In this document: in pieces, positions 32,471-34,725 of the stretch
How the letters are laid out: each line of letters begins with the position of its first letter
Numbering within the stretch: position 1 is the stretch's first letter
Assembly (NCBI GenBank): GCA_944389135.1
Contig: CALXLG010000001.1
Coordinates: 89,421-153,420 of the forward strand
From: an uncultured Alphaproteobacteria bacterium
Lineage (GTDB): Bacteria > Pseudomonadota > Alphaproteobacteria > Rs-D84
Reading direction: 5' to 3'
DNA: 64,000 nucleotides
Notes under the pieces: generated by a model
What the model was told of the DNA's origin: nothing
The model's database searches: none
The model's input: the letters and a program-made list of their open reading frames with translations, nothing else
Made by a program: the position numbers and the translations under genes

Positions 32471-32836
32471 TTGGTAAATGTTAATAAAAATTCCGAGTTT
32501 ACTCTTGCAGTGGCAAACCTTGCCGCTGCCGCAATGTCTGCAAACCCTGGTTTAAGTATGACTGATGCAGTAAAAGCAGCGCGCGAGACTTTAAGGGGGA
32601 CTACCGTCAGCCAACAGCAAATAGAGGACTCTGTTCAAAACGATAAAATTCAGTGTTTAGAAGATGGTACTTGGCACATAATGCTAAGAAGATATATAAA
32701 GAGAAAATTTAATCTGACACCACAACAATATAAAGAAAAGTGGGGGCTGCCAGATGATTATCCAATGGTCGCACCAGAGTATACCAAAAAGCGTTCAAAA
32801 ATAGCAAAGAAATCTGGGCTAGGAAAAAATAAATAG
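32471..32836 (+). CDS. MucR/Ros-family transcriptional regulator with degenerate zinc-finger
   Basis: 121 aa (TTG start in ORF track); C-terminal ...[37 protein letters not shown] matches Ros/MucR core (PEEYRxKWGLPxDYPMVAP...RSxLAKxxGLG); only one Cys/His retained in finger region. Confidence 0.6.
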   Translation: [121 protein letters not shown]

Positions 32837-32844
32837 GATATTTC

Positions 32845-34725
32845 ATGTCAGAAAAATTTAGAAATATTGTTACAGGGCCAGAAAAATTGGCTAAACAATT
32901 GCGCGAAGCAATAGAAAAAATGTCGCCAAAAGATTATGTAAAGCGTAATAGAGCGAAAAAAAATGCTTCTGGTAAAAAAGATGAAAATGCTGCAATAAAA
33001 GATAATATTGCAACTGGTTCATTAATGGCTATGAAGGGCGGGGCGTGGCTTGCAGCAGGTGGTGCACAGTTTTTATTAACGTTGGCGAGGTGGTTGACAC
33101 TCGACAATCAATTTATTAGAAATATGGAAGAGAAATATAAAAAAATAAATTTAGAGGAAGTAAAAAAATATCAGCCACAAAAGATAAGAAGTTTTGCGAA
33201 AAACTATCCTAATGTATCATCTCATATTATATGGTATTTTATGCTGTCTGCAACGCTTTTTGGGGGTAAATTCGTTGTTAATTCTAAAAATATGAATGAT
33301 TACAAAAAGTCGTTAATAGATTGGATAGATGATTTGAAATGGAATGATATTGATAAAGAAACTCAATATATTTCCCCAAATAGAGAAGATTTTATAAATG
33401 CGGCATTGGAAGAGTATTGGTCAGAAGTTGCAGTTGGGTTAACAGAATTAGAAACTTACAGGGCAATACCGAAAAGGCATTCTGGTGAAAAGCGTTACAC
33501 TAATGGTTTGGGGTGTACATGGCATTATGTATATAACGAAAATGGAAAGTTAAAACAAGTTGGAAATACCAGCAATACAAGGGCAAATTCAAAAGAATAT
33601 AATTACGAACAGGCGAAAAGACATCTTAAATATGAAACATTAAAAAAGTTAAAAACAGCGATGCTTGGCAAGAAAAATATGAATGGCAAATATGCTGTTG
33701 CGTTAATTTTGGCAGGTTATCAAAGACCTGTGGATATTTCACATATTGCTGCAAGAATAGAAAATGCAAATAATGCCCAAGAAGTTGCGGATGCGTTTAT
33801 GTATATAGGGAAAGACGGGCAAAGATGGAAAAATGGGACTTTGAAGCGTCGTTGGGTTTGTGCTGCGTATGCACTAAATTTGATAAATTCGGCGGATTTA
33901 TTAGAAATGAATCGAGATAGTTTTTCAAAGGTTGAATTGAATAATATCATAAGAAATGGACATTTTTTATTAGATGCAGAAACCGTTAAATTTGTTTTGA
34001 GCAGAACGAATTCTAATTCAACTGTGAAAGAATTTCTAAGTGATTTTCCAGAAGGAAAGAAAATATTGGCTCAAGTAGATGCTGTGGACAACAGTAAAAC
34101 AATAAATCTTGAAGTATTTAATCAACAAGATAAAAAAATAGAAAATTCTATGGCTTGTGTAAATAAGGGAGATAAAAAATTTAAACGAAAAAAATTTGAA
34201 GATGCAAAAGATTTGTATGCCAAGGCTATCGAAATAGATCCTGATAATATGAATGCATATACTGCTTTGGCAGAAACTTATAATAAATTAGGGCATAAAA
34301 ATAATTCAATAGAATATTATAAAAAAGTTACTGAAACTGTTTCTGCTTGTAATAAAAGAATGAATAAAAATAAAAGTTTATTGTATGATAGGGATATAAA
34401 AGCAGAAACTTATTATGCTGCCGGAGTGGCTAGGTTTGAAATGGCTGAAATATATAAAAAATCTGGTGATGATAAATTGGCTAATGAAAATTATAACCTG
34501 GCAAAAAAGAATTTTGAAACAGCAATTTATAATTGTAAAAATGGTAGCGAAGAAGCAACTGATTTAAAAGTTTATGAAGATGCTTTGAAACGAGTAAAGG
34601 AAAAATTAAAGACTAAAAAAATTGCTTTTAATTCAGCAAAAAATATTTTGAATAAAGAAATAAAAGAAAAAAATGCTGTATATGCATGGAAGCAGGCAAT
34701 GCGAAGTGATAATAATTTAGCATAA
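32845..34725 (+). CDS. large hypothetical protein with phage-lysozyme-like (GH24-like) central region and C-terminal TPR repeats
   Basis: 626 aa; segment SGEKRYTNGLG..., YAVALILAGYQ, ADAFMYIGKDG...LKRRWVCAAY parallels lambda/P22-type lysozyme motifs (E...AY.D..G, ALxSLxFNxG, ADAFLxWxKAGK...RRRxERALF); C-terminus KFEDAKDLYAKAIEIDPDNMNAYTALAETYNKLG is canonical TPR. Confidence 0.45.
   Translation: MSEKFRNIVTGPEKLAKQLREAIEKMSPKDYVKRNRAKKNASGKKDENAAIKDNIATGSLMAMKGGAWLAAGGAQFLLTLARWLTLDNQFIRNMEEKYKKINLEEVKKYQPQKIRSFAKNYPNVSSHIIWYFMLSATLFGGKFVVNSKNMNDYKKSLIDWIDDLKWNDIDKETQYISPNREDFINAALEEYWSEVAVGLTELETYRAIPKRHSGEKRYTNGLGCTWHYVYNENGKLKQVGNTSNTRANSKEYNYEQAKRHLKYETLKKLKTAMLGKKNMNGKYAVALILAGYQRPVDISHIAARIENANNAQEVADAFMYIGKDGQRWKNGTLKRRWVCAAYALNLINSADLLEMNRDSFSKVELNNIIRNGHFLLDAETVKFVLSRTNSNSTVKEFLSDFPEGKKILAQVDAVDNSKTINLEVFNQQDKKIENSMACVNKGDKKFKRKKFEDAKDLYAKAIEIDPDNMNAYTALAETYNKLGHKNNSIEYYKKVTETVSACNKRMNKNKSLLYDRDIKAETYYAAGVARFEMAEIYKKSGDDKLANENYNLAKKNFETAIYNCKNGSEEATDLKVYEDALKRVKEKLKTKKIAFNSAKNILNKEIKEKNAVYAWKQAMRSDNNLA

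Follow-up and report, generated by a model that had tools for sequence, protein, structure and literature searches.

What is the protein encoded between a mucR-like gene and a fused ybeY::lnt gene in gut Alphaproteobacteria with reduced genomes, and how does it come about that most of this gene differs beyond detectable nucleotide similarity between two genomes that we take to belong to the same species? We addressed this question in a stretch of 64,000 nucleotides (nt) from contig CALXLG010000001.1 (assembly GCA_944389135.1, positions 89,421–153,420 of the forward strand) of an uncultured Alphaproteobacteria bacterium, hereafter the window, in which gene X encodes a protein of 626 amino acids (aa) immediately downstream of a 121-aa open reading frame (ORF). 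An initial annotation, made from the sequence of the window without database searches, had placed both ORFs at coordinates that we confirm (table 1).

The source lineage is Candidatus Enterousia of the order Rs-D84, a name taken from the genome records of homologues, and all 87 homologues of gene X come from uncultured Alphaproteobacteria. Members of Rs-D84 are gut bacteria with reduced genomes of ~0.75–1 Mb that lack the tricarboxylic acid cycle, respiration, and standard transporters and for which dependence on partner cells has been proposed; RodA, MreB, and MrdA are present in the order (PMC12306168). The lifestyle of Candidatus Enterousia is probably partner-dependent, and the symbiosis and virulence setting suggested in the initial annotation fits an uncultured gut bacterium with a reduced genome poorly. 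We read 36 related loci, including 28 representatives of GTDB species. In what follows, P-numbers denote proteins of the gene X family, L-numbers denote related loci, and A, B, and C denote the types of the lysozyme-like core of X. The order mgsA on the minus strand followed by mucR, X, and ybeY::lnt on the plus strand is conserved across the genus and recurs in the 36 loci, with X as an intact ORF. A search within the window for a second copy of gene X or of the MucR gene found none.

A cassette exchanged within and between species

Gene X exists at one locus as at least three deeply diverged lysozyme-like types, and the part of the gene downstream of the region encoding its putative anchor is a cassette that has been exchanged within and between species at the boundary between anchor and enzyme and, in one lineage, also at the boundary between enzyme and tetratricopeptide repeats (TPR). 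The comparison of the window with locus L004 is the most direct. The two are 95.6–98% identical over window positions 27001–33282, 34736–36741, and 36857–39739, and we take them to represent the same species. Over positions 33283–34735, neither blastn nor sliding identity detected any nucleotide similarity: the sliding identity is 0.9–1.0 up to ~33280, then at the level of random sequence, and again 0.93–1.0 from 34736/34801. L004 encodes a type-B core and a TPR part behind an N-terminal module that is 88% identical to that of the window, and comparison of the two proteins shows that the cores are not alignable and that the TPR parts are 28% identical.

The window protein has a type-A core, and its N-terminal module shares 45–88% identity with the modules of types B and C, against just 18–33% with those of other type-A proteins. 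Because a B/C-like N-terminal module is joined to a type-A core, we regard the window allele as a chimera, in which a putative anchor of the B/C type precedes an enzyme and TPR part of type A. P0001 is 98% identical overall to X of the window and has the residues of P0045 at positions 7–18, which marks a further breakpoint. The clusters represented by P0001 and P0045 have 9 and 21 members, respectively, and both alleles of the window's species have been sampled repeatedly.

The same pattern extends beyond this species, as N-termini that are 72–94% identical carry different cores in five lineages. The N-terminus is 91% identical between P0083 (type C) and P0084 (type B), 78% identical between P0009 (type A) and P0102 (type B), and 72% identical between P0092 (type B) and P0097 (type A). 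For P0129 (type A) and P0136 (type B), the N-terminus is 98–100% identical, the TPR part is 90–100% identical, and the core is ~20% identical; in this pair, the enzymatic module alone has been exchanged. Loci L011 (2593–5707) and L022 (2643–5854), which have a GC content of 52–53%, contain two lysozyme-like genes in tandem behind mucR. The first of them, type-B-like and 440 aa long, lacks TPR and starts with a different, single hydrophobic N-terminus; the second is a full type-A gene. Such a tandem could plausibly have given rise to the types and served as a substrate for recombination. Within its neighborhood, X changes fastest across the genus, with identities of 37–57% compared with 54–63% for YbeY::Lnt, 70–82% for MucR, and ~84% for MgsA.

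The lysozyme-like core and the modules around it

The initial annotation had described the central part of X as a lysozyme of the phage type. We found no match of the window core to lysozyme profiles in Pfam, NCBIfam, or PHROGs, or of the family hidden Markov model (HMM) to PDB sequences, and alignment of the type-A core by hhalign with the P22 and T4 lysozymes was not significant. The 626-aa protein thus gives no significant lysozyme HMM hit, an outcome that the initial annotation had named as refuting its call. The call of a lysozyme-type fold is supported instead by the predicted structure and by bridging via relatives that match PF00959. In hhalign comparisons of the cores, type A aligns with type B (e value 5e-6) and with type C (e value 3e-5), and type B aligns with the P22 lysozyme (e value 6e-8). 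From end to end, the full-length profiles of the three types can be aligned (e values 5e-40 and 4e-31). PF00959 is matched directly by types B and C and by outliers such as P0179 (e value 3e-11), and type B matches the endolysin family phrog_7. The best structural matches of the X core are phage endolysins and its best viral matches are lysozymes, and together these comparisons support a T4-lysozyme-type (GH24) fold for the predicted structure of the core.

The AlphaFold2 (AF2) model of full-length X has a predicted local distance difference test score of 82.9. In the predicted structure, Glu203 lies right after helix 1, Glu215 lies in the loop of a beta-hairpin, and Thr219 opens the next strand (strand 2) before a Gly-x-Gly motif. 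These residues fall within the candidate active-site stretch TELETYRAIPKRHSGEKRYTNGLGCT. As to whether catalytic residues survive, which the initial annotation had proposed to check, Glu203, Glu215, and Thr219 do not vary among 38 type-A sequences, and neither do the remainder of T200-Y205 and R217, G223, and T225. In divergent A-like members only Glu203 (in ETYR), Glu215, and Thr219 persist, whereas the neighboring Glu201 does not. Judged from their order and spacing, the three residues would correspond to Glu11, Asp20, and Thr26 of T4 lysozyme, and a catalytic role for them is plausible, the second acid of type A being a Glu at a shifted position relative to Asp20 of T4. Types B and C have the canonical Glu/Asp/Thr set, with E194/D209/T215 invariant in type B and E206/D214-215/T223 invariant in type C. 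Compared with GH24 phage lysozymes (T4 E, P22 gp19, and lambda R), X of the window differs in having no PF00959 match, in having ETYR in place of EG and a Glu at −4 rather than an Asp at −6 from the Thr, in an additional subdomain of ~65 aa, and in being a 626-aa chromosomal core-genome protein with a putative anchor and TPR.

Some family members carry, together with the N-terminal module, a second type of wall-hydrolase domain. In P0139 (807 aa), a Peptidase_M23 domain with both HxxxD and HxH motifs precedes the lysozyme-like region, and in P0184 (904 aa), Peptidase_M23 is placed after the TPR. A replacement of the lysozyme module by M23 in P0139 was considered and rejected: a weak lysozyme-like stretch is retained (IETSED...NTLGMGF by eye; HMM e value 0.29), and M23 therefore looks like an addition rather than a swap.

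The N-terminal part of X that could not be placed had initially been given as ~200 aa; its length is ~175 aa. Between the two hydrophobic segments of the N-terminal module the motif DN..(I/L)R..E is invariant (Asn88, Arg92, Glu95). Out of 1.84 billion proteins, a profile of the module retrieved only 123 cluster representatives; the ones that were checked are family members or short fragments, and we regard the module as lineage-specific. Averaged over 117 members, the net charge is +7 ahead of segment 1, +5 in the stretch that separates the two segments, and −2.5 beyond segment 2. This distribution, with positive charge before segment 2 and negative charge after it, fits an anchor with the N-terminus in and the C-terminus out; the module is thus probably a cytoplasmic part followed by a membrane anchor, which is the weakest inferred step in our account. 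No hydrophobic peak was found in X after aa 150.

The C-terminal TPR repeats that had been recognized by eye are recovered by Pfam, which detects no other domain in the 626-aa protein, with scores of 38.1 bits (cut-off 27.8) for TPR_1 at aa 437–500, 36.9 bits (cut-off 25.7) for TPR_8, and 31.8 bits (cut-off 26.8) for TPR_11; TPR_17, TPR_2, and TPR_19 also score above their cut-offs. The AF2 model has helix pairs at aa 430–565, and Foldseek aligns this region with the three-repeat peptide-binding TPR domains of Sgt2, RPAP3, and CHIP (TM 0.66–0.76 on the target, probability 1.00). When full-length X was searched with Foldseek against the PDB, TPR matches dominated and nothing was returned for the N-terminal module. 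The K-x-(I/V)-(A/S)-F-N motif of the tail is retained in all three core types as well as in short forms without TPR. Its variants include KKIAFNSA, KTISFNRA, KVAFNRG, KTIAFHDA, and KTISFNSA, the type-A consensus is KKxAFN, and F612 is invariant in type B.

The MucR-like gene and its locus

The 121-aa ORF upstream of X matches the Pfam model PF05443 (ROS_MUCR) with an e value of 1.1e-27 and 96.9 bits against a cut-off of 25.4, over profile positions 38–123 of 123, and it matches the Ros87 structure 2JSP with an e value of 1.5e-18, in agreement with the initial assignment to the Ros/MucR family. The alignment with Ros87 also upholds the initial view that the zinc ligands are mostly lost: Cys79, Cys82, His92, and His97 of Ros correspond to Cys62, Asp65, Tyr75, and Phe80, so that three of the four ligands are replaced, and one further His (His69) lies near these positions. 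The Cys2His2 zinc coordination of Ros/MucR is thus not found in the 121-aa protein; this does not exclude it from the family, because the known members Ml4 and Ml5 are also without it. All 30 related loci that carry mucR have the Cys-Asp-Tyr-Phe pattern, and because the pattern is fixed in a highly conserved domain the degenerate zinc finger is not a sign of decay. The homologues in relatives have gene calls of 120–128 aa.

A likeness to zinc-lacking rhizobial MucR proteins had been proposed, and the window protein does resemble Ml4 and Ml5 of Mesorhizobium loti (PMC9779718). Ml4 and Ml5 are zinc-free yet functional proteins in the Ros/MucR family, whose members bind AT-rich DNA with T-A steps; Ml1–3 have an Asp at the second ligand position, and the Ml proteins nevertheless remain folded and able to bind AT-rich DNA (PMC9779718, PMC5693944). 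The window MucR shares the Asp at the second ligand position with Ml1–3 and the loss of the C2H2 set with Ml5. Unlike Ml4 and Ml5, it has the ligand pattern Cys-Asp-Tyr-Phe, fixed across a whole genus, and its gene seems to exist as one copy, at a conserved locus in a reduced genome. It is also shorter than the Ros/MucR comparators (121 aa vs. 142 aa), with an N-terminal region, the part through which Ros/MucR proteins oligomerize, that is ~20 aa shorter than that of Ros.

The spacers that had been given as 9 and 11 nt are 8 nt between mucR and X (32837–32844) and 10 nt between X and ybeY::lnt (34726–34735), and in several relatives mucR and X overlap by 1–4 nt. AGGA (32835–32838) lies 6 nt before the ATG of gene X. 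A consensus scan found no terminator-like site on the plus strand between 32200 and 37200. The 79-bp divergent intergenic region between mgsA and mucR (32392–32470) contains a sequence, TGgTATAAT, that we infer to be a promoter-like element upstream of mucR. The element was not listed by the promoter consensus scan, as there is no match to a −35 hexamer, and in that scan promoter-like sites were no commoner than in shuffled sequences (26 vs. 22.2 ± 5.5). Given the short spacers, the overlaps in relatives, the lack of a plus-strand terminator, and the extended −10 element upstream, mucR, X, and ybeY::lnt are likely to be co-transcribed, and the initial proposal of one transcript running into ybeY::lnt is plausible. 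A possible control of this operon by MucR is suggested by gene order and by the behavior of the family elsewhere; AT-rich sites with T-A steps occur everywhere at a GC content of 36%.

On the left, mgsA is at the same position in 35 of the 36 loci, the exception being L002, a short contig that begins at mucR. On the right, ybeY::lnt closes the presumed operon downstream and also bounds the exchanged segment. Because the two genes are fused in every related locus with a complete gene, an assembly error does not account for the fusion, which is fixed in the lineage. A second variable spot follows the operon (window 36755–36856 vs. L004 9971–11045). At this spot L004 has an additional ORF of 278 aa, the N-terminus of which resembles a signal peptide and for which Pfam gives no match, and L003 has a different gene, encoding a 264-aa CarboxypepD_reg protein; the window has neither. 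The minus strand at 36855–38942 contains a RHH_4 (ribbon-helix-helix) gene and then three conserved ORFs of 144, 168, and 308 aa without Pfam matches, a block that is syntenic in related loci.

The window also contains a number of envelope genes. In addition to lnt, a penicillin-binding protein (PBP), a SPOR-domain protein, a LysM-M23 protein, an S41 protease, SecDF, and FtsK are encoded near X or elsewhere in the window, and four of the products are listed in table 1 as candidate partners of X. Two further ORFs (28017–29303 and 29379–30107) lack a Pfam match, start with signal-like sequences, and terminate in ...TFLF and ...VNVLF, respectively, as outer-membrane beta-barrels do; both are conserved upstream of mgsA/fabD in relatives.

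Table 1. Features of the window discussed in the text.
Feature	Position	Strand	Description
S41 C-terminal processing protease with PDZ	23501–25006		Candidate partner of X
mgsA/rarA-type AAA+ gene	31114–32391	−	PF12002 MgsA_C, e value 2e-58; divergent; left anchor of the conserved locus
Extended −10 element TGgTATAAT	32431–32439	+	Read from the sequence; putative
mucR-like gene	32471–32836	+	121 aa; TTG start; AAAGG (32458–32462) upstream; Ros/MucR DNA-binding domain
Gene X	32845–34725	+	626 aa; N-terminal module, GH24-like core, accessory subdomain, TPR, C-terminal tail
N-terminal module	32845–33285	+	aa 1–147; basic N-terminus, two weakly hydrophobic Gly/Ala-rich segments (aa ~63–85 and ~124–146)
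Exchanged segment	33283–34735	+	Codon ~147 to the stop of X plus spacer; no nucleotide similarity to L004
Lysozyme-like core	33370–34074	+	aa 176–410; predicted GH24 fold ~aa 183–345, extra conserved ~65-aa subdomain aa 346–410
Candidate active-site stretch	33442–33519	+	aa 200–225; Glu203, Glu215, Thr219
TPR domain	34132–34554	+	aa ~430–570
C-terminal helix and Lys-rich tail	34555–34725	+	Long helix; motif K-K-I-A-F-N aa 591–596 (34615–34632)
ybeY::lnt fusion	34736–36754	+	PF02130, PF20154, and PF00795 in one ORF; TIGR00043, TIGR00546
SPOR-domain protein	45430–46236		Candidate partner of X
Class B PBP	49484–51100		Candidate partner of X
LysM+M23 (DipM/NlpD-like) protein	55544–56911		Candidate partner of X

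What X may do at the cell wall

The reading that we rank first, and to which we give about an even chance, is that X is a lineage-specific, probably membrane-anchored peptidoglycan glycosidase (muramidase) with exchangeable modules. The basic N-terminal module and its two weakly hydrophobic segments would hold the protein at the inner membrane with the N-terminus inside, so that the remainder, a much-diverged phage-type GH24 domain and then the TPR, would face the periplasm. There the GH24-like domain may cut glycan strands in the wall of the producing cell itself; Glu203 would likely serve as general acid, with Glu215 and Thr219 in the places of Asp20 and Thr26 of T4, while the three-to-four-repeat TPR and the conserved tail may bind a partner, or the TPR may bind the tail of X itself. 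The unit mucR-X-ybeY::lnt would probably be transcribed from the AT-rich intergenic region between mgsA and mucR, to which the zinc-free MucR, like other members of its family, would be expected to bind. We rank an anchored wall glycosidase first because of the fold, the catalytic-type residues in all three types, the accretion of M23 domains, the presence of X in every species of a strongly reduced lineage, and its neighborhood of envelope genes.

Several observations weigh against this reading. Type A has neither a match to lysozyme profiles nor the canonical E-G and Asp. No signal peptide was found in X, and its hydrophobic segments are weak, with a mean Kyte-Doolittle value of ~0.9–1.0 and a clearly positive crude insertion energy, which makes membrane insertion, and hence a periplasmic location, uncertain. 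The link to MucR is one of adjacency, and mucR is absent between mgsA and X in 3 of the 28 species (L007, L012, and L030). Finally, replacement by a version less than 25% identical within one species is not obviously expected of a housekeeping wall enzyme.

A serious rival, though in our view an unlikely one, is that X is a domesticated, attenuated or non-lytic protein with a lysozyme fold that acts as a scaffold or localization factor, similar to SpmX and with features of PodJ. Its GH24-like domain would then mainly bind peptidoglycan or a protein partner, and its TPR would organize envelope or division proteins. The precedent is SpmX of Caulobacterales, a GH24 lysin that was co-opted and detoxified at Asp20 while the catalytic Glu was kept and whose activity, although attenuated, remains necessary (bioRxiv 10.1101/418723). 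Type A, too, retains the Glu and has no Asp at the canonical spacing, sequence profiles fail on it, and the weakness of the hydrophobic segments would permit a cytoplasmic location. PodJ has a transmembrane anchor and combines a cytoplasmic part with periplasmic TPR and a domain that binds peptidoglycan (PMC8980812). A scaffold is harder to reconcile with types B and C, which keep the full Glu/Asp/Thr set and yet interchange with type A at the locus, or with P0139, which adds an M23 module with intact metal-binding motifs. X also has neither the Pro-rich linker nor the C-terminal pair of transmembrane segments of SpmX (PDB 6H9D), in which an N-terminal muramidase precedes these elements and TPR are absent. 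In X the order is reversed, with the hydrophobic segments N-terminal and the core after them, and X further differs in having TPR, in belonging to another lineage, and in having several interchangeable lysozyme types, and the two proteins likely arose independently.

The exchange within a species is left unexplained by either housekeeping reading and is expected of a polymorphic effector. X as a cell-wall-degrading effector, in which the N-terminal module would deliver or anchor the protein at a contact site and a swappable hydrolase would attack the wall of a partner or competitor, is nevertheless a doubtful proposition; inhibitors on the partner side or differences in wall chemistry would then drive diversifying selection and keep several types in circulation. 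A conserved N-terminus with a replaceable enzymatic part and sharp intragenic breakpoints is found in polymorphic toxins, both alleles of the window's species recur (clusters of 9 and 21), X is the most diverged gene of its neighborhood, and the reduced metabolism and proposed partner dependence of Rs-D84 (PMC12306168) are in keeping with such a role. Set against this, the short spacers and the adjoining ybeY::lnt leave no space beside X for an immunity gene, searches of Pfam, NCBIfam, and PADLOC revealed no secretion-system marker or trafficking domain, the TPR and tail are conserved in architecture unlike the C-termini of toxins, and X is a single-copy core locus among housekeeping genes. 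We think it similarly improbable that the two ideas hold together, that is, that this single core locus of Enterousia encodes an anchored wall hydrolase whose cassette, of three lysozyme types and sometimes with an M23 peptidase added, is shuffled because other cells are its targets or counteract it. Balancing or diversifying selection would in that case act on X, which could open walls or serve as a weapon at contact sites; its expression would fall under a zinc-free MucR, and its logic would be that of a polymorphic effector lacking an immunity gene and set within a housekeeping operon. Far less probable than any of these is a prophage lysis cassette of which X, as an endolysin of the signal-arrest-release (SAR) type, and a phage-borne MucR-like repressor would be the remnant. 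The structural matches to phage endolysins, the match of type B to phrog_7, and the Gly/Ala-rich weakly hydrophobic segments, which recall the SAR domains of P1 Lyz and phage 21 R, are what would be expected of it. Synteny and gene content exclude it, as X occupies the identical position between mgsA and ybeY::lnt in 36 of 36 loci whose flanks are only ~70% identical in nucleotides, and no phage genes or holin are nearby; moreover, gene X has the base composition of the rest of the window, MucR has no match in PHROGs, and the hydrophobic segments lie 60–145 aa from the N-terminus, not at it. A defense system was also considered and set aside, as there was no meaningful PADLOC match.

SAR endolysins (P1 Lyz, phage 21 R, and RrrD-like proteins) differ from X, in which two segments (from aa ~63 and ~124) come after a basic region of 60 aa and which has neither a holin nor a phage context; a regulated release of X from the membrane, by analogy with them, would be pure conjecture. 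Slt70 joins a superhelical domain to a lysozyme-like domain, which is of the GH23 fold family rather than GH24, and NlpI-hydrolase complexes are a further example of a wall hydrolase scaffolded by repeats. In Slt70, the NlpI complexes, and PodJ alike, domain order and size differ from those of X, and no sequence relationship to X was found. Polymorphic toxin and effector loci, such as pesticin-type bacteriocins and peptidoglycan-hydrolase effectors, share with X a conserved N-terminus and wall-targeting enzymatic parts exchanged by recombination; X differs from them in lacking an immunity gene and a secretion marker, in the conserved plan of its TPR and tail, and in its location in a core housekeeping operon.

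The domestication of a GH24 lysozyme, a zinc-free MucR, and modular exchange are each of a known kind and are combined here; what stands out is a lineage-specific lysozyme-TPR protein with exchanged modules in a conserved unit. Following SpmX, X would be a second example of a GH24 lysozyme of the phage type in a core alphaproteobacterial membrane protein, and one so diverged that sequence profiles miss it. Clean modular exchange at domain boundaries is usual for toxins and surface antigens, but not for a gene between mucR and ybeY::lnt. A fast-changing putative wall hydrolase that selection keeps in every species may provide a handle on the division of Enterousia or on its dealings with partner cells.

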